Counted from the whole stretch's first letter, positions 14,847 through 63,306 are shown. The stretch is DNA of 63,306 nt, filler included, from Aduncisulcus paluster (GCA_024181965.1; 11 parts of 11 records of this genome joined end to end with filler, not necessarily neighbours in it); one strand, 5' to 3'. Numbers and translations are program-made. Notes: generated by a model from the letters alone, not told the origin.

Positions 14847-17800
14847 ATGAAACGGATAAAATATTCTGGAGGTATTTTACTTCGTGACAGTCTTAAAATG
14901 TTTGATAATTATGCATTTTCAGCGGAACCCACCGATTCGAGCTCATTACCTCCATTATCAACATCAAAGAGTTCTATCCCTTTAAGAAGAGCTTTAAATC
15001 CAACTAGAAATATGTTAAAACCACCTAAAACGTCAACAATAGAAAGGTTTATGAAGAAACCAAAACGAAGGAAAGATGGATTTATAGAAAAGTCAGATAT
15101 TGATTCTATGTCTCTTATTATAACACCAAATACCTCTAAAATATCTCCAAGGGCTATTTCTCATATTCCACAAGGTATTCAATCCTGTTCAATCGAAGAC
15201 AAAGTATCCCGACCTCCGATCTCTGCTCCTGCTGTTTCACACGAACGGATGGGGAAAACATCAACATTTTCGCGATCTAGATCCTCTGGAGCCTTTGGTA
15301 TTCGACCTTTTGGAAGAGGAGTTGAAGATGAAGAAAGGCAACAACATAAATTGCTTGAAAGCCAGCTTTTGGCCGAAGAAGATGCTGTTAGAAGACAAGC
15401 CTTGCATGATGCAATACGTGCTAAGACCGCTCAAGTTCTTGTCACAGGCTTCGGTCAGCGTACTCAATATATCCCCGGATCGGTCCCTCAATTCGATTAT
15501 TCCAGTTCCAAGAATAGGACATTTCCATCCTCTGTTATTCAACAGGCTCAAATTGAGACCACTCCCCAAAATAGTGATCGTCCTTACTCAACAACCAGTG
15601 CCATTGTTAATCCTCCAAGTGCGTATATTCCTCAAGTTATGAATCGAAATATGTCCAAATCTTCTCAAAAACTATATCAAAAATCTCCTATTGCCAGACC
15701 TCCGACTGTTTCGCGTGGAGGTTCGCGGCAATCTCGGTCAACTGGTGTGGGCTTCGTACCATCGTCCAGCATGGATAGTCTTCGTAGTAATTTGACCAGT
15801 GCAGAACTATCCAGACCTTTATTTCACGGCACTAAACAGATTCCACAACCACAGATTATCACAGCCCATGCCAGTGTTCCATCCATATCTGATGCCCTCC
15901 CACCAACGCAAGCTCAGAGCATCACTCATACTTCTGCTTCTGGATCTAGCACTATTCATAGCTCTCATGGCAGGCAGAGAAGACACTCACAGCCCTCGAG
16001 ACTTCCTTCGTCTCATCCCTCTGGGACTCAATTGGACATTGCTAACCCCTCAGGTGATGTGGACACTGGTGCAACTTTATCTGCTATATTGCAGGCACTC
16101 AGGGATGGAGAGCGGGCTAGTGTTGGGAGACTAGGGCTTAAACATGATGGAACTGGTATGGCTGTGCAGGGTATGGCTTCTACCACAATGTCATGGACAG
16201 ATCTCACAGATGAGAGTGTCCGGCGTGCTGTTGCTCTCGCTGCGGCTGAACGATTAGGTCTTGACTTGAATCTTGTTGACTTGTTGGTGCAGAGCGATGA
16301 AGTGATATTTGTTACTGGTTTGCTGGAAGAAATGCGGAAAAGAGAGGAGAAAAAAGTTGTCTCATCCTCACAGAGTCATGGACGATTGATGCGACACAGC
16401 GAAAGTATGATCGGTAAAGGATTAAGGGGCGATGGTGAAGAAGATAGGAATATTGATGAAGAGCTTGCAGAGAGAACCAGGATTTTGACGAGTGCTTTCG
16501 AAAAAAAACTCCGGAGCCATCTTCACACGTTGCATAGGCATGTTGAGCGTCTGCAAAGAGATCATTCAACGCAAATGCGCAAGGAAAGAGAGCAGAAGGA
16601 GAAGAAAATGCAAGTATTGAGCAATCAATATGTAAGTGTTCTTCGTGAGAATAAGGAGCTATTTCGGGAATCTGGTGACCTTGAGCGTGAGTTGGATGTG
16701 ATGAAGAAGAGGACTAAACGACTGGAGGAAGAGATCGTAGCAAAGAATGATGCTATAGAGACTCTCCAAGATGAAGTACAACAAACAAGGGAAGAAATGT
16801 ATCTTCAAATGGAGGAACAGCAACATGGGCTTATGTATAATGGTTCTGGAATGGGGACAGGCATCCACGGTGGTCATGACGGAGATGGACGTCGAATGAT
16901 GGAATCTGAGCATTCTGTGGACCATCCGCCGACAGTTGGAAGGGACTCGTATGGCATGGGAGAAAGTCAGATCTCTTCCGGATCATCTGGCTCTGGTGTT
17001 GGCAGGATACATCATCCGATTGGCACTCCCACACCCGCCCTTGTTGACGCTGTGTTCATGGCACAAGGCGGTGGAACTCCTGGAGGGAGAACAAGCGGAC
17101 ATATACGTGGGTCTGTCCAAGTGAAAGTGCCCACAGGTATCTCTCCTCATCTCTCCGAAACGAAAAGACCCCACACTGCACAGGGATTTATTCATAAAAG
17201 TTCTAAAAATAGAATCGGTGTTCCTACAGGAAGGAATGGGAGAAGAAGTGCTTCCCCATATCCTGGTGGAAGAGGAGCTCTTGTGTGTCCTTCTCCAAAC
17301 CTTATGATCGTTCACTCCTTGCGGGAACAAATCGATCATCTTGAGAAGAGTAACAAAGAAATGAGAAAAGAAAAGAACCGTATCTCTGAGAAAGTTGGTC
17401 TTCTTCGTGAGCTCTGTGGGAAAGAGATGCGTGAAATTGGTGTGGGGAATGAAACTCAAACCAATGGTCCTTCCTCTTCCTCTTCCTCTTCCTCTTCTTC
17501 AGATGGTATGTCTCTCAGTCAACAGTTATCAGGGACGTCTCCAACTTACATCGATAGCACTCAATATCTGATTGAGCAGCTATCATTGGTCGTTTCCTGC
17601 GAAGAAGTCGAACTTAGCTGTCCTGTGTGTGCCCGAATGTTCGAAGGAATTGCCCATTCATCCGAGAAGGAAGAAGAAGGAAAAGGGGCGAAAGGAAAAG
17701 CAAGCACAGTACAATCATCAAATGTGGAATCAAGCACCCCAATGATAGAACATCATCCTTCAAAGAGTGTTCACTGGGATAAGGAAGAAGTTGAGGATGA

Positions 17801-52257: not shown

Positions 52258-52887
52258 TTATTCCCTTTCTTAGGGACGACGAGTATTGGCGAAGCAAATC
52301 TGCTTTTCGCACGTACTATAATCCCTTTTTCCATTAATCTGTCGATTTCCTCTCTGACAAATTCGGCATGCCTAGCCGGAAGTCTCCGATTCCGTAAACC
52401 TCCCAAAAATAAACGTCCGACTGTATCATCATTTCCAAAGTCAGGGTTCGAAGCGATTACTTCTTGATACGCGGCTACGTATTGTACTAGTTCCGGTTCT
52501 TTCATCTTTTTCAGCTTAATTCGTCTTAATTGGTCGTAAAAGCCCTGGGTAGATCCAGCTCCAAAAAACTTCTTAATAGCGGCAAGAAATTCCTCTGGGT
52601 TTGTGTCCCCATCACATTTTGTTGCAAGACGTAACGCTGATAACACGTGGACATCAATCAACGTGTGCCAAGGTTCCTTTCCACCTCGAGCAGAATAGAT
52701 CTTGTGATCATTCATAAATTTAGACCAGTCCTCTTTCGAAAACCTTGTTAGAAAAGGTGGTTTTAATAATTCGGCCATAATACTAAAGTATTAATACTGT
52801 AAGCTAAGCCAAATTTATTTAAATAAACGGTTCTATAAATAGGACATCCCTGAGAATGTCTGTAGATAAGGATCAATGTCCGTAACA
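52258..52887 (-). mobile_element. 5' end of a Ty3/gypsy-like LTR retrotransposon: ~90-bp LTR (52887-52798), palindrome (52797-52788), gag fused to the RT N-terminus (52778-52258)
   Basis: RRLPARHAEFVREEIDRLMEKGIIVRAKSRFASPILVVPKKG is the classic gypsy RT start; LFLGGL gag-like motif; LTR TGTTACG...GCTTACA contains TATTTATA and AATAAA. Confidence 0.85.
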
Positions 52888-53958
52888 GTATGTTGACCAA
52901 ATATATTTGGATTTATATTTTCCTTCTAACAATTCTTTTATATTTTTGAATAATTCCATTTCAATACTCCTTGTTTCTTAAGTTAGCTTTTCCTTTGTTT
53001 TGAATGGTACGGATCTTCTCTCGAACCAATTTCATGAGATTGTTTGACTATTTTTGTATTATTAAATCAAATATGAATATGCATGGATTATTTTCTTCTA
53101 TTTTTATTCATCTGAAAAAAGACCGGAACCCTCTGAACCTCTTTCAAGGAGATAAAATAGAAGAAATATTTTCTCCATAATCAGGTTGAAATTTTATGCA
53201 CTCATCATGATGAATTAGTTCTGTCTGGTCATGATAAAGATCAATTTTGGACAAGGCACCAAAAATGCATTCAATCATATAATGCCATAAAATTATTATC
53301 AAATGATCGGGATAGTGCAGCAAAATGGAAGATTTCTTGGGGACATCCTATATATCTTGTCAATGGAGAAAAAATTTATCAATTGTGTGGTAGCGCTTTA
53401 TAATATAACAAATAAAAGTATTAATGCGGATCTTTTTTTTGAATTGTCGAAAACTTTTTTAAAGCAATCAAATTTATTGAAAATAAAACAGATGTAGACT
53501 GATCTAAAAATAGATCATGAGAATCTTACACTTCCCCCAGATCAGAGTCAAGACAAAGACACAATACTTCATTATACTGGTATTCCCAGAGAGGGAAAAA
53601 TGGGGCTGATCAACCGATCATTCGGAAACTAAATTTCGGCAATAACATTTTCAGATGTCCCACACATACACAAATTATTTTCACAAACTTTCTCAAGAAA
53701 TCTATTTTTAGATTTCTGCCCAAACACAAACCATTCTACTTTGTGCTTATTTAAATTCGTTTATCGCCAGCAGAGACGCTTAATTATGCCAGATGAATCA
53801 ACTGAACAAAGTTCTTCACAAGAGGAATTGCCTCGCCAGGCAGTTCAACCCTCCGAACNNNNNNNNNNNNNNNNNNNNNNNNNNNNNNNNNNNNNNNNNN
53901 NNTTAATTAATTAANNNNNNNNNNNNNNNNNNNNNNNNNNNNNNNNNNNNNNNNNNNN

Positions 53959-54066
53959 TTGATAAAGAACAAGAAAAGAAGAAGGCTATGGAATATGACC
54001 TAACAAGAGAAAACGAAAGCTGAACTTGCAACCATTGAACGATTATCGATGTTGCCGTGGTTATAG
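53959..54066 (+). pseudogene. 3' remnant of an upstream tandem copy of the 54458-55039 gene
   Basis: TGAACTTGCAACCATTGAACGATTATCGATGTTGCCGTGGTTATAG (ELATIERLSMLPWL*) matches the end of the downstream gene; appears frameshifted against the preceding DKEQEK segment. Confidence 0.6.
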
Positions 54067-54457
54067 CTGATCCTTCATATCATCGTTTCCACAAGGATTG
54101 AATACAACTTCTTTCCTGATAACAATCACATTGTATGAACCATTACTTCCTGTCATGTCTTGAGATATGATGGATACCATGTGTATATTGTCACTTTCAT
54201 GTTTATATCGCTGTATTGTCAATAATGTCAACAATGTCTGAGTACGCCTTATTTGGAGAACAAATGTGTTTACAAAATAAATGATTTATTATCATGTATG
54301 CATATTAATAATGATAAGAAACATCGATTTTGGATATTATTGTTCTGTTCCAAGACAATTGTAAAATTGTGCTTTTCCTTGCAATTGGAAGGTTATTTGT
54401 GTTTATTATTCTACTTAATTTGATATTAGATAATCCGTAGTTGTGTTATTGTTTGTG

Positions 54458-55039
54458 ATGAGAATTATTGGCAAATGTATTCTAGATATTCTAGATATTA
54501 CAAATACGACTGACGAAATGTTGAAAGCGGCTTTGGAAAGCCCCTTTCCTGTTGGCCATCCAGATCTATCTGAAATTGATGGATCCAAAGCATATGGGGA
54601 TTATCACAGTGGTCATAATCATTCTAATTTATTGCAATTCGTAAGAGGTGAAAGTTTCATCTTTTTCTATCCCAATTTACATCTCCCATTTGTTACACGA
54701 CATTATCTCAGTAAGTTTGTTGTAAGTCATGATAGTTTTCGGAATGGAATCAAAGATTTCGATGCTACATTCACAACATCAGATGGCAAGAAGATTACAA
54801 AAGAATATCAAATGGGAGAGATGCCTCCAAGGCATTATTTCTGGCAAGAGTTTCCTATAGATCTTGATAATGTTATTTCTTGTGATATTCATGTTATATC
54901 AACGCTGGATGGAAAACAAGATTTTATTTATTTGTATGGCATTCGATTCGTGATTGACAATAAGCAAGAGAAAATGAAAGCCGCCAAAGAGCATGAACTT
55001 GCAACAATTGAACGATTAGCGATGCTTCCATGGTTATAG
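54458..55039 (+). CDS. Lineage-specific beta-rich (possibly galactose-binding/DOC-like jelly-roll) family protein
   Basis: Complete ORF MRIIGK...LPWL*; close paralog at 19276; the fold is inferred from strand pattern only. Confidence 0.75.
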   Translation: MRIIGKCILDILDITNTTDEMLKAALESPFPVGHPDLSEIDGSKAYGDYHSGHNHSNLLQFVRGESFIFFYPNLHLPFVTRHYLSKFVVSHDSFRNGIKDFDATFTTSDGKKITKEYQMGEMPPRHYFWQEFPIDLDNVISCDIHVISTLDGKQDFIYLYGIRFVIDNKQEKMKAAKEHELATIERLAMLPWL

Positions 55040-55054
55040 AATATCTTTCTTTCG

Positions 55055-55488
55055 TTATTTATTTGTATGGCATTCGATTCGTGATTGACAAGAAGCAAGA
55101 GAAAGCTCAAGAAGCAAAGAAAGAAATAGAACCCAAAGAATGTCTTAAAAAAGAAGGAAAGGAGAAAGAACTATCCGATTTTATGTTTTCGACAACACAA
55201 TCTCTCAAAGATCTTCAGTCTGCGTTATCTGATGAAAAGAAACAGAGAGTACATGATAAAGAAGAATTTAAGAAACACTCGCTTGAAGTTCAACAACATT
55301 CAGGGACCGGAAAGCGTAGATTCCATGACGATGAAGAAAGATGTACTCGTCATCTCTTGTCGAAACGAGCTGTTGTTGCCTCTCTCCAATCCATCCTTTC
55401 CCAGGTTGAACAAAGACCAGAGTCCGAACAATTCCACTTTTCTGTCGAGCTTGAGGCCGTGCACCGAATTGTTCCATCTCTGAAATAG
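55055..55488 (+). pseudogene. Partial duplicate of the family's last strand (IYLYGIRFVID) fused to a different coiled-coil tail
   Basis: 55055-55104 matches 54924-54973 with one mismatch, then an open frame continues to 55488. Confidence 0.55.
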
Positions 55489-55964
55489 TTTGTGTGAAAT
55501 CGTGCTTCCTTGCCATGTTCCTTTTTGAGCATTGTAATATGTCGATATTTGTGGGACTTCATTGCTGCACTCATTTTATTGCCAGTATGAAATTTTGTCT
55601 TCAACCTGAACTATCTACAAACTGCAGCGCTCTGTCAAAGTATAGAGTTGGACGGTCCAAAGTCTGTATTTCGTATTGTGTCCGTTTTATTGTTTAAATT
55701 TGCATTGTCCTCAGTCCTCGATTCAAAATACATACCAACTGTCGAGATTTTGTGCGATTTCTTATCTGGTGTTGGTAAGTTTTCCTGTGGACTGTGTTCT
55801 TGAAGAACAATGGAAGTTCCATTCTGTGTGGATAGAAAGAAAGAGAATAAAGGAAAAATATAATNNNNNNNNNNNNNNNNNNNNNNNNNNNNNNNNNNNN
55901 NNNNNNNNTTAATTAATTAANNNNNNNNNNNNNNNNNNNNNNNNNNNNNNNNNNNNNNNNNNNN

Positions 55965-56450
55965 CTGCGAGAGTGTTAGTTCTTTCCATCCATCAATTTC
56001 AGAAATAATCTTTTTGTATTCGAGGTATCTGTCATTTGCATCTGCTTCCAATGAGTCAATGAAGGCAGCTGCATTGTCAGAGAACCAGCGAGGGGAGTCA
56101 TTGAGCAGGCGAATAAGACCTCTCATCAAGGCATCCTCATGATCATAATCAGCAAGTCTAAGACCTAATCCTCCTTCAGATCTGGCCAGAGCCAACACTT
56201 CAGGGGACACGCCTTTTAAAGTGAACTTGTTCATTATTTCATCAATGATTTTGTCTTGATATTCACGAGATACAGCCCTAGCCACCTGCGAGACCTCTCG
56301 TAGATAGCTGTTCCTGCCAAGGACAGACACTTCGACATATTTGTAATATTCGTGCATGGGGAGAATATTGGCTTCTTGAACACATTTGAGTTCGTATTCA
56401 CACCTCTCCCTATACTTCTTAACCACTTCTTCAGACTTCCCAAAAGGACA
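55965..56450 (-). mobile_element. 5'-truncated non-LTR retrotransposon fragment (end of RT / thumb region)
   Basis: PFGKSEE... then LALARSEGGLGLR..EDALMRGLIRLLN, the L.L....GGLG motif that follows RT in non-LTR ORFs; begins abruptly next to (AC)6. Confidence 0.7.
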
Positions 56451-56497
56451 ACACACACACACAATTCAATTGATTTTGGCACTAAGCGAGATTAAAA

Positions 56498-57287
56498 ATG
56501 GGATTAAAGGCGTTGTTATGTGGTTTTTTAGCCTATTATGGAACATATTATGTTGGATTCAAGGAAGGAAGGAAAACGCTGCAAGATTTGTATTCAGTTC
56601 GAAAATCATTTATCCCTAAATCATGCATTTCGAAGATTGATAAACCAAGAGACATCAACCACATTTTAACCATTATTTTAGATGTTGATTCAACAATTTT
56701 TGCGACAAAGAAATTACCGAATGGTGCTTCACAGGTAATCACCCGTCCTGGCGCGGAAGATTTTATAAAACGGATATCTCGCTATTGTGAAATAGTTCTT
56801 GCCACTGCTAGACCTCATATTGTTGGAACCAGAACTCTCGCCTCTCTCGATCCTGAGAAAATATGTGTTAAACATGCCCTTCGAAGCAGTCGTATTCTTG
56901 TGCCCCGTTATGGTTTATTTGGGGGAATTCCAGGAAATAACAGGGGCTGTGCTGTGATTGCTGCGAATGCTGGAACTAAATTGGGTCGGAAAGCAGAAGC
57001 TTCGGCTGGCACTGTGATTGGTGTCACAACAACCGGTTTTTACGATAATATGAAAGAATCTTCCATTGGACGATTATGGGGATTCATGGGTAAAAATATA
57101 GTCGGTCTTGGAAGTGTTTTGTCCAAAGTCACTGGAAATCTGCTTGGAAAATGTGGATTTAAATCATTTTCAAACGAAGCCCAATTTATGAAAAAAATAC
57201 AACGTCAGAAAAAGCAATTGTTGAATCGGATTACGCCCACTTCATTGTTTTCTGATGGCACTAAAGTTATTTCGATAAATCAATGGG
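56498..57287 (+). CDS. FCP1/NIF-type HAD phosphatase-domain protein with an N-terminal hydrophobic segment, partial
   Basis: LTIILDVDSTI (DxDxT), RPGAEDFIKRISRYCEIVLATA, LASLDP; N-terminal ALLCGFLAYYGTYYVGF. Confidence 0.8.
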
Positions 57288-57553
57288 NNNNNNNNNNNNN
57301 NNNNNNNNNNNNNNNNNNNNNNNNNNNNNNNTTAATTAATTAANNNNNNNNNNNNNNNNNNNNNNNNNNNNNNNNNNNNNNNNNNNNAGGCTACCGAACC
57401 AACACCCCGGGAGGACACCGATAAAGGAAACCTAGGATCTAAAAATAGATCGTCGAAACCCTTGAGAAACTCCAGAAGATTCTGGAACCATAGATTGATC
57501 ATCTACTACGTTCGCGTCATAGTATCTGGATAGCTGCGATCACAAAGTGATCT

Positions 57554-57673
57554 GGGAAAGTGAGAGGAGGATGTGGTATCCTTGCAGGTTCTCAGAGGAT
57601 CTATTTATAGAACCGACTATGATGTGTTCGTTTATTAATAAATTGTACGTAAGCTTTATCGCAGTCTACCATA
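57554..57673 (+). mobile_element. 3' end of a related LTR element: polypurine tract (57554-57571) and ~102-bp 3' LTR (57572-57673)
   Basis: GGGAAAGTGAGAGGAGGA is followed directly by TGTGGTA...TACCATA (6/7 inverted termini); shares CTATTTATAGAACCG exactly with the LTR at 52828-52842. Confidence 0.75.
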
Positions 57674-58173
57674 AAATGATACAAAATTTATATGTTTATT
57701 TTTTCTCAATACTTACAAGAGATAGCCAAAATTTTATGAAATTATCTATTATTAATTTACTTTTCTATTTTATTTTAACCGTCAAATTTTATCAATTTAC
57801 AAATCAAAAAATCGGAAGCCCAGAATTGTAACCAGTCAACAGGAGAGTGAGTATGGGTTAATATGATGTTGGCAAACCACTGTTGTCGAACTTTCATTTA
57901 TAGTATAAAATGGATCCTGAAAAAAAGTTTCTAAGTTATATTCGGTAATTCAGTCCATTTGAAGCACTAATAAGGCACATTTCCTTTGTTTTTTGGCTCA
58001 TCCTCATCCTTTTCTTATCCAACACATCATTATAAGTTGAAAAAACTCAAAAATAAAAAGAAAAAAATGTTAGTCATTTTGATGAGATTTCTTGAGGTCG
58101 AAACATAAAATTGAAAAAATGAATACTATTCATGATAGTATCATATAACATGAATATAATATAAATGAAATGT

Positions 58174-58713
58174 TGTTATGAATTAGTAAATTTTGGCGTA
58201 GTATAACAGAAAAATTTTTCCGTTACGGTAAATTCCGTCAATTACAACCCGATAGTGATATTATTTATTGATTTGATAAGTGATTTTTTTTGATATTATT
58301 GATTACAAATGGATCCAACGAGTCGTTACGATTTCCGCGATACTGATGCCAGACGATTCAATCCAAGTTATTTGACTACAAGTTCTTTAACGATGGACAC
58401 TTATATTACCCAACCAAGCAAGTTATTAGAAGAGGAACATGAAACCTTTGGGAAGGTCGAAACATCGATTCTCAGAGCCCCAAGATGGACAGAATTCACG
58501 AAAGAATCTTATTTCGCTTTTAAAAGACAATTTGAATCGTATCAAGCCGATGGAGGAAAGGCTTTAGCATTTTCTCGCATTTCTGAAGCTGTTAAGCTCA
58601 ATATTGATACCGAAGTGGACGATTTTGATAAAGATAATTGTTTCGAATCGTTAAACAAGTTTTTTAGACTCGAAGCAGTCGATGAGTTGTACAGAGAACT
58701 AAAAGCCTTGAGT
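58174..58713 (+). mobile_element. 5' end of a third family member: ~35-bp LTR-like unit (58174-58208), palindrome (58209-58220), gag-like ORF (58309-58713, truncated)
   Basis: ILRAPRWTEFTKESYFAFKRQFESYQADGGK..LNKFF..LYRELKAL aligns with LLKPPFLTRFSKEDWSKFMNDHKIYSARGGK..IKKFF..FYDQLRRI; TGTTAT...ATAACA termini. Confidence 0.7.
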
Positions 58714-61800: not shown

Positions 61801-63306
61801 TGAAGGTCGAATAGAAGAGATTAATATGATAATCATTGATGAACTTCACTATATGGGTGAATCAAAACGTGGAGGTATTCTTGAGTTGCTTCTCACAAAT
61901 ATTGTCAGTGGTGTATGGGGTCATATAAGAATCGTTGGAATGACGGCCACTTTGCCCAATATTGCACAATTAGCCGATTGGATGAATGCTTTTTTCTATG
62001 TTGCACACCATAGACCTATTCCTTTGGTAAAAAGTGCGATTGTCGCCGGTGGGAAAGTCAGAAGAATTCTTGAAGAAGAAGCCAAATATCAGAGTCGGGG
62101 ACAATCAAATAATACTCAACTGATTCAAAGGAATTCAATGACACCTGGACGTAATACGAGCTTTATGAGACCATCTAACCCCTTCAACATGACATTCCAT
62201 CCCAAATATGGGAGTGCATTTCACAATCCTCATGAAACCCAAGCAGAACAAGCAGAACCTTACTCACACATTGATAAAGAGAAAGGGAAAGTTGAGCGAG
62301 ACCGTCTTGTTCAAGCCCACCCGCATTTAAGGTATCTCTACCCAGTGGAAGAGAATCAGCTCCTACGATGTGCTCTGAGGTATGATTCAGTCCAGTCGAT
62401 GAGGGTTAGAATCTGCATCGATCGTAGTCAAGAAGAGCTGTTCACTTGTTCTCCTCTTCACACGTTATCCCTGCAATCATCCCATGATAAACTTGAGGCA
62501 ACCCCTACAGCATTATCACGCTCACAGTTACTGGGAGATGATAGTAAGCATAAACAAGAGAGGGAAGCGAAAACATTAGCAAGGAGAGGATTCTTAACCC
62601 CTTCAATTCTACCTCAACCAAGTTCAACTATCATGCGACCTTGTATAAAGACAACACCAAACCCCAAGACACATTCAGTAGCCTCAGCTCTCTCAACAAA
62701 CGGTGCCTCCAAGACCCCCTGCTCCTCTTCTTCTTCGCTCGGTGCAGAGAGCTCCTCGTGTTTCACCAGATGGACACAAGGAATGTATGTCGGTGAGATA
62801 GTAGAGGTTGCCAAATCCTACAAATACTGCCAAGACATGCAGATCCTTGATAGACCCTTAATGAAACGTCGATCTGCATGTCCCACTGACATCGTTAACA
62901 TTGTAACCTCCCTTGTAATGGAAAGAGCTTGGAATCATGCGATGATGCTTGGAGCCAAGCGTGAACAAGCATGGACCAAGTGGCAATGGAAACGTGATAA
63001 CTGGGAACTCCAGTGGAAGAAATGGAAAGAAAGGGAAGATGAGAGGAAGAGGAGGAAAGATCAATGGATCGAACGTGAAAATAGGTGGAAACGTGAACTC
63101 CAAGCGAGAAAAAAGGAAGAAAAGCTACGAATCCAAGAAGAGACGGCTATCAAACAAGAGTATGAAGCATGGAAGAAAGAAATGGAAGGGTGGATGATAG
63201 AAAAGAAACTATGGCAAGAAGAGCTTGATTACCAAGAAGAAGAAGCAGATGATGGATTCGCTAACCTTGAATCTCCTCCAAGTTATCCTCCAGAATCTAA
63301 ACTCTA
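58815..63306 (+). CDS. HELQ/Pol theta-type (Ski2-like SF2) DNA helicase, partial at both ends
   Basis: Manual translation, open to the window end: LPPHTLREIYRRGVRELYEWQAEAL, APTSGGKS (61277-61300), VCTYEK, IIIDELH (DELH at 61838-61849), RGGILELLL, IVGMTATLPN, RPIPL. The frame change at the 60028-60047 gap is due to a 191-nt-offset assembly duplication. Confidence 0.9.

Follow-up and report, generated by a model that had tools for sequence, protein, structure and literature searches.

Palindromes at the mapped and candidate LTR boundaries of two Ty3/gypsy-type retrotransposon families in Aduncisulcus paluster: a possible self-complementary primer site

Two contigs of the free-living fornicate Aduncisulcus paluster, contained in a stretch of DNA of 63,306 bases that we analysed as a whole (the window), carry what their coding sequences and relatives identify as the 5' ends of two diverged families of Ty3/gypsy-type retrotransposons with long terminal repeats (LTRs), here called elements A and B. 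In both elements a palindrome is found at the junction, mapped in A and candidate in B, of the LTR and the internal sequence, in place of a primer-binding site (PBS) for a tRNA; read on the element strand, the junctions are ..GCTTACA/GTATTAATAC in A and ..TATAACA/GAAAAATTTTTC in B. A preliminary description of the window had reported both junctions and had proposed that these elements prime reverse transcription through the palindrome. What had been noted at the junctions is borne out, in A more strongly than that description could know: both palindromes are present and reads fix the boundary in A, whereas the boundary in B is supported by sequence similarity. The interpretation of the palindrome as a self-complementary primer site is plausible but tentative.

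The window consists of 16 A. paluster pieces, set apart by stretches of N that enclose the artificial word TTAATTAATTAA; the draft genome itself is fragmented into 25,863 contigs with an N50 of 4.6 kb (PMC9933649). Contig A spans 52258-53858 and carries its element on the minus strand, contig B spans 57388-58713 and carries its element on the plus strand. Public Logan contigs of two runs (X1 and X2) were aligned to contig A only. That X2 is an RNA run is a guess, no inference on expression was drawn from it, and its reading is confined to the parts of contig A that it covers.

The extent of the LTR in element A is fixed by the aligned contigs. The summed depth of X1, which does not equal copy number and of which only the steps were used as evidence, lies between 48k and 119k at 52258-52797, steps to 249k at 52798-52851, amounts to 140k at 52852-52905 and drops to about 2-3k from 52906 onwards (2,470 at the right end, which is unique). 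Breaks of X2 contigs fall at 52797, 52798 and 52810 towards one end of the repeat and at 52884 and 52888 towards the other, and an X2 contig reads ..CCCTGTATG immediately to the left of 52798, ending in GTATG, the same five bases that the window holds on the far side of the repeat. Because the depth step, the contig breaks and the GTATG on both sides agree, the repeat unit of A is 52798-52887, and the LTR boundary that had been predicted from the sequence alone is exactly right. Element A is a genuine insertion with a 90-bp LTR, TG..CA ends and a 5-bp target-site duplication (TSD) on both sides; its 3' LTR is visible solely as an X2 contig junction, the 3' end of the internal region lying outside the window. 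The leader of element A measures 19 nt. Two aligned records cross the junction, X2 record 11 (337 nt) with 8 differences and X1 record 3 (105 nt) with 6 differences and 2 gaps; none is itemised in the palindrome, the itemised differences being confined to positions 30 nt or more away from the ends of contigs.

Both perfect 12-nt palindrome cores, AGTATTAATACT in A and GAAAAATTTTTC in B, lie where they had been described (Table 1), and each is part of a longer, imperfect palindrome. By arm pairing these longer forms are rare: the 22-nt form in B, in which 10 of 11 arm positions pair, has no equal at any other of the 61,869 centres in the window, and 20-nt palindromes that, like the one in A, pair at 8 of 10 arm positions number 42 at 61,901 centres. 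Both extended palindromes begin with the last five nucleotides of the LTR (TTACA in A, TAACA in B), with the junction at the same arm position. Between the two cores three of the five arm positions differ, and at these both arms have changed together. Since about 1-3 palindromes with arms of at least 5 occur per kb, the chance of a palindrome starting at the independently fixed boundary of A is about 1% or less.

In the established retroviral scheme of reverse transcription, the end of U5 in an LTR is fixed by the base that is copied first from the primer. The primer of element A must therefore pair no more than a few bases away from 52797, on GUAUUAAUAC... On the minus strand no TGG follows the A junction until the ATGG of gag, 17 nt on, and in B none is present in 58209-58308, up to the gag ATG at 58309; the lack of a TGG that had been remarked upon thus holds for both elements. 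The stretch beside 52797 is AU-rich and without TGG, and priming by the 3' CCA end of a tRNA is therefore excluded. Tf1-type self-priming requires an LTR segment that is complementary to the PBS, according to the available parts of two sources (PMC7175516, PMC4600332). The check for such complementarity that had been recommended was carried out, and no LTR segment was found to pair with the post-LTR site: RNAduplex gave -1.9 kcal/mol for the LTR against the next 20 nt in A and -4.0 kcal/mol in B with the LTR ending at 58208, with every one of 300 shuffles pairing more strongly in both cases. A Tf1 arrangement is thus lacking. Two further candidates were rejected, namely GGCCGAATT at the start of gag, which pairs with AAATTTGGC in the LTR but lies 20 nt from the LTR end and folds no better than shuffles, and, for B, a poly(A) tail annealed to the U-run as the primer, which would place the LTR end elsewhere. 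ARAGORN and Rfam searches found no tRNA or RNA family within the window.

As the U5 end is set where minus-strand synthesis starts, the palindrome would be the primer-binding site, and the perfect complement to that site within the element's own RNA is the palindrome itself. The element itself would most likely supply the primer, from its RNA, by a variant form of Tf1-type self-priming. Two co-packaged genomic RNAs would pair palindrome to palindrome, with 4-5 flanking bases included, giving 10-12 perfect base pairs and 3-4 more past one mismatch (14-16 bp). If an RNA were then cut at the core's 3' edge (behind 52788 in A, behind 58220 in B), a 3'-OH would be left paired opposite the first post-LTR base; an RNase H-type cleavage at the position that mirrors the LTR end would thereby turn one co-packaged RNA into the primer of the other. 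Since the PBS of the progeny would be copied from the primer, such a palindrome would be self-maintaining and free to drift between families. Palindrome-mediated self-priming is, in our view, a plausible though tentative explanation of the junctions. To our knowledge, the priming modes established for LTR elements are restricted to tRNA priming (by the 3' end or internally) and Tf1-type self-priming. That a self-complementary site replaces the tRNA site in a group of protist Ty3/gypsy elements, and would represent a third route of priming, is a slightly more doubtful proposition. In Tf1, the RNase H cleaves an RNA duplex after base 11 and so provides the self-primer, as described in the available parts of PMC7175516 and PMC4600332. 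Among plant elements, 12% are predicted to self-prime and 6% are without a detectable PBS in the part of PMC6317226 at hand.

Several observations weigh against palindrome-mediated self-priming. Of the model as previously proposed, the geometry is sound in both copies, with the tRNA 3' end and Tf1 pairing excluded, but the homoduplex energies (-15.6 kcal/mol for A and -16.8 kcal/mol for B) are ordinary: energies as good occur in 12% (A) and 9% (B) of 17,641 windows of 30 nt, and in 34 (A) and 20 (B) of 500 shuffles. The leaders fold no better than shuffles either, with z-scores from -0.71 to +0.61. In this AT-rich DNA a perfect palindrome of 12 nt is nothing unusual; the window holds 39 of at least 12 nt, ten of which are the spacer TTAATTAATTAA, and of the 29 real ones left in 62,326 bases contig A holds four and contig B two. 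The sample comprises two junctions, one from each of two families and that of B a candidate, and in contig B an LTR-like stretch (57572-57663) ends 545 nt upstream of 58208 and is followed by non-palindromic sequence. A weak point of the model itself is symmetry: in a symmetric duplex the cut would fall in either RNA, so that the templates would lose the PBS for the second strand transfer; the model needs asymmetry.

An alternative is that the palindromes arose by chance in an AT-rich, low-complexity leader and that a host RNA, such as an internally cut tRNA fragment or another small RNA, serves each family as primer. Such a reading is in line with the frequency of real palindromes of at least 12 nt (29 in 62 kb, six of them in contigs A and B) and with the unexceptional duplex energies and folds. 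It also agrees with the B core being the junction of an A5 and a T5 tract, and with the B boundary having originally been picked by the palindrome itself; moreover, half-tRNA primers are known in copia lineages, as stated in the available part of PMC6317226. Chance has to account, however, for a palindrome that begins at the independently fixed boundary of A with the low probability given above, for a 22-mer in B that has no second instance in the window and sits no more than 105 nt from a gag start, and for the same register of both palindromes relative to the LTR end. A host primer, in turn, would need 3' ends (..GUAUUAAUAC in one case, ..GAAAAAUUUUUC in the other) that are almost pure A/U, and such ends are unlike tRNA segments, given the general composition of tRNAs. 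We consider chance palindromes combined with a host primer only slightly less likely than palindrome-mediated self-priming.

A second alternative concerns only element B and the place where its LTR ends. The 25 nt before the B palindrome resemble the end of LTR A, a similarity that is matched or exceeded in score by 286 of 123,642 windows (0.23%). Further support comes from the uniqueness of the 22-nt palindrome and from its beginning, as in A, with the last five bases of the LTR, and 58208 is probably an LTR end in B. The true end would lie elsewhere if 57572-57663 were either the LTR of B, with the palindrome in the middle of the leader some 545 nt in, or part of a separate element, and the palindrome would then be tied to a single junction (n=1). 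The best local alignment of LTR A with contig B indeed falls at 57589-57615, with a score of 38 compared to a maximum of 29 in 200 shuffles, and a collinear second block of similarity follows at 57629-57644. The stretch is bounded by TG..CA and has a purine tract just upstream, of a kind that is found at 1.0% of window positions, and the match at 58187-58201 alone scores 18, under the shuffle median of 21. Conversely, the part shared with LTR A is mostly a genome-wide promoter-like motif that is also present before open reading frames (ORFs) of the host, and the anchored test prefers 58208 (0.23%) to 57663 (10%). A single LTR of 637 bp (57572-58208) fits both similarities while still ending at 58208, and Gag proteins at 27% identity make an LTR identity of 70% to B's own LTR unlikely. 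A different end of the B LTR is possible but less likely than one at 58208.

The motif in question, TTCTCA-N-GATCTATTTWTAGAWCC, has 14 matches in the window compared to 1.55 expected, located 3-70 nt before host ATGs. More broadly, TTCTCA followed 1-12 nt on by a GATCTATTTTTAGATC-like, TATA-type sequence was seen at 17199, 31438, 47211, 48351, 53500, 53699, 57435, 61331 and other positions; at 53699-53715, for example, it stands upstream of the ATG at 53786. This composite motif is probably the core promoter of the organism, copied in the LTRs.

Least probable, in our assessment, is that the palindrome serves the genomic RNA as a signal for dimerisation or packaging, like the palindromes of the retroviral dimerisation initiation site (DIS) and PBS or the PAL sequences of Ty1, with something else priming on the same stretch. 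Retroviral RNAs dimerise via self-complementary leader sequences, including a palindrome inside the HIV-2 PBS (available part of PMC5874298), self-complementary sequences of Ty1 are candidates for a dimerisation role (PMC3592414, likewise seen in part), and judged by their sequence the leaders of A and B contain self-complementary segments that would be capable of homoduplex formation, as in a retroviral-type DIS, with imperfect palindromes of 20-22 nt that could form extended duplexes; yet dimerisation by itself names no primer, and the AU-only arm beside the LTR must still be paired, known DIS lie in hairpin loops downstream of a tRNA PBS, an arrangement not present here, and the duplex energies of both palindromes are ordinary.

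Elsewhere in the window, identical 12-nt palindromes flank gaps of 20 N, with AATGAATTCATT occurring three times (24114, 24375 and 26830) and AAAGATATCTTT twice (31837 and 32172). Their recurrence at the edges of scaffold gaps suggests duplicated sequence.

The assignment of A and B to one group of LTR retrotransposons, which had already been suspected, is borne out by their coding sequences. ORF A and ORF B are homologous, though distantly, with 27% identity across 84 aa (E 2e-6), and their relatives carry a DTG protease, a reverse transcriptase (RT) and an integrase. ORF A matches two partial A. paluster proteins, P0001 over 75 residues at 100% and P0002 over 47 residues at 94%. The latter, which is 94% identical to residues 127-173 of ORF A, consists of the C-terminal part of Gag, a DTG protease and the start of the RT, and has structural matches to the Ty3 RT (4ol8) and the Ty3 Gag-Pol (7q5b). 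A further protein, P0006, carries the Pfam domains Integrase_H2C2, rve and Integrase_p58_C, followed by the middle part of Gag, and its closest solved relatives are the integrase of prototype foamy virus (PFV) and the Ty3 Gag-Pol. Among 1.84 billion representatives ORF B has three relatives, all from A. paluster: P0003 (82% identity) together with P0004 and P0005, the other two identities being 54% and 44%. The presumed order gag, protease (PR), RT, RNase H (RH) and integrase (IN) was assembled from partial same-species proteins, P0002 supplying gag, the protease and the RT start and P0006 the integrase domains, and not from any single full-length copy.

Other searches were negative within their scope. 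With seven proteins as queries against the 16 window pieces, tblastn found matches in contigs A and B only, and blastn of A and B against all window pieces returned short matches only. In a metagenome scan with P0002, 50 stretches fitted a pattern and none was confirmed, while none of 415 candidates was a longer homologous protein for ORF B. Pfam held no family for ORF A, ORF B, P0001, P0002 or P0004, and on P0006 it gave no chromodomain at an E value of 0.01 or better.

The copy of element A in the window is an internally deleted gag-RT fusion that is present in multiple copies. ORF A passes from ..GGLRN into RRLPARHAEF.., the start of the RT, and X1 contigs part from contig A exactly there. 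Translated by hand, the loose ends of these contigs read ..LKDRIKSEAD and PSIAYRA.., which correspond to the undeleted gag and pre-RT sequence of P0006 and P0002. The deletion removed about 308 residues, comprising the C-terminal part of Gag and the protease, in frame and at a direct repeat of 9 nt.

Table 1. Features of contigs A and B discussed in the text (window coordinates)
Feature	Position	Strand	Basis and remarks
5' LTR, element A	52798-52887	-	90 bp, TGTTACGG...GCTTACA; depth step, loose ends at 52797/52798 and 52884/52888, TSD
TSD GTATG (CATAC in element orientation)	52888-52892	.	matches X2 loose end left of 52798
Promoter-like motif GTCCTATTTATAGAACC within LTR A, preceded by TTCTCAG	52829-52845	-	motif family enriched in the window
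AATAAA, putative poly(A) signal, 16 nt before the end of LTR A	52814-52819	-	sequence reading
Palindrome at LTR/internal junction A	52783-52802	.	perfect 12-nt core AGTATTAATACT at 52787-52798; 20-nt form TTACAGTATTAATACTTTAG, 8/10 arm pairs
Palindrome B	58204-58225	.	perfect 12-nt core GAAAAATTTTTC at 58209-58220; 22-nt form TAACAGAAAAATTTTTCCGTTA, 10/11 arm pairs
Candidate 3' end of 5' LTR, element B (..AAATTTTGGCGTAGTATAACA)	58184-58208	+	resembles the final 25 nt of LTR A (anchored comparison)
Second LTR-like stretch, contig B	57572-57663	+	TG..CA, promoter-like motif 57598-57614, AATAAA 57637-57642; then non-palindromic GTCTACCATAAAATG
Polypurine-tract-like sequence GGGAAAGTGAGAGGAGGA, directly before the TG at 57572	57554-57571	+	sequence reading, only suggestive
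ORF A: N-terminal part of gag, in-frame fusion to RT start; open at contig end	52258-52778	-	protein comparison
ORF B: N-terminal part of gag; open at contig end	58309-58713	+	protein comparison
Internal deletion junction, 9 shared nt	52381-52389	-	X1 loose ends before 52381 and behind 52389

A number of further observations were made on the related proteins and on the neighbouring sequence. The gene model of P0006 runs from the integrase straight into the middle part of Gag, and within it a segment of about 54 residues is duplicated exactly, a layout that suggests either tandem elements sharing one LTR or a chimeric prediction; tandem elements with one shared LTR have been described for Tf1 and Tf2 (available part of PMC11042837). 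P0001, an A. paluster protein of 756 aa, joins 681 residues without a Pfam family to residues 13-87 of the Gag of ORF A, 100% identical, and the join coincides with a splice-acceptor-like site (..ctaacaag/G at 52742/52743); this protein is probably a gene prediction that splices across an LTR. The ENA protein P0007 (1,634 aa) is an RT-RNase H-integrase polyprotein with a C-terminal MT-A70 methyltransferase domain (Pfam E 1.2e-16), an unusual fusion whose relationship to the A and B elements is only distant. In contig A, a second multi-copy stretch lies at 53284-53577, where X1 depth is 15k-39k over a baseline near 2.5k and loose ends fall at 53309, 53386, 53443 and 53577; its minus strand shows the LTR-like layout of the motif followed by AATAAA, and it may be a solo LTR of another family. 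At 53959-55100, two adjacent ORFs have near-identical terminal peptides (..ELATIERLSMLPWL and ..ELATIERLAMLPWL) and are followed by a repeated block tatttgtatggcattcgattcgtgattgaca, as if the end of a gene had been duplicated locally in tandem.

The mode of priming is a defining trait of retroelement lineages, and the primer site is unexplained in a sizeable minority of elements. With its 90-bp LTR, its 19-nt leader and its precisely mapped LTR end, element A offers a compact system for the study of a palindromic primer site. If palindrome-mediated self-priming were true, genome dimerisation would be linked directly to priming, and the evolution of primer sites free of host tRNA constraints would be explained; if it were false, A and B would still be the first LTR retrotransposons for this fornicate in the literature searched, with an unusually short LTR. 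Our literature search on palindromic primer-binding sites returned retroviral dimerisation only, although the per-element PBS tables of PMC6317226 may list palindromic sites, and the search on LTR retrotransposons and Fornicata gave nothing for fornicates.

Among known systems, non-autonomous deleted LTR elements resemble copy A in keeping the LTR, the leader and part of gag while having lost the C-terminal part of gag and the protease; in copy A, however, not all coding sequence was lost, the in-frame deletion at a 9-nt direct repeat having fused gag to RT. Tcn2-5 of Cryptococcus and the 6% of plant elements without a detectable PBS share with A and B intact LTRs and the lack of a recognisable tRNA or Tf1-type site. 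Novel priming mechanisms have been proposed for Tcn2-5 (PMC7175516), but unlike for A and B no palindrome is reported for them or for the PBS-less plant elements in the available parts of PMC7175516 and PMC6317226. The HIV-1 DIS, the palindrome of the HIV-2 PBS and PAL1-3 of Ty1 are, like the palindromes of A and B, self-complementary sequences of the 5' leader with a potential for pairing between RNAs. According to the parts of PMC5874298 and PMC3592414 at hand, these measure 6-10 nt and lie in or downstream of a tRNA-complementary PBS, often in hairpin loops, whereas the palindrome of A and B takes the place of the tRNA site and straddles the LTR end (the candidate end in B), instead of residing in a stable hairpin downstream of a PBS as a DIS does. 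Close in organisation is the Tf1/Sushi group (Tf1, Tf2, Tj1 and Tcn1), which like A and B consists of Ty3/gypsy-type elements with a gag-PR-RT..IN order (presumed for A and B) that are devoid of a PBS for a tRNA 3' end, and in which the primer-binding site of 10-12 nt adjoins the LTR, as the putative one does in A and B. In the proposed model the likeness would extend to the primer, supplied by the element's RNA once a short RNA duplex has been cut at its edge. Where A and B depart from Tf1/Sushi is in the origin of that duplex: no LTR segment complements the post-LTR bases, the site is complementary to itself, and its partner would be a second RNA.

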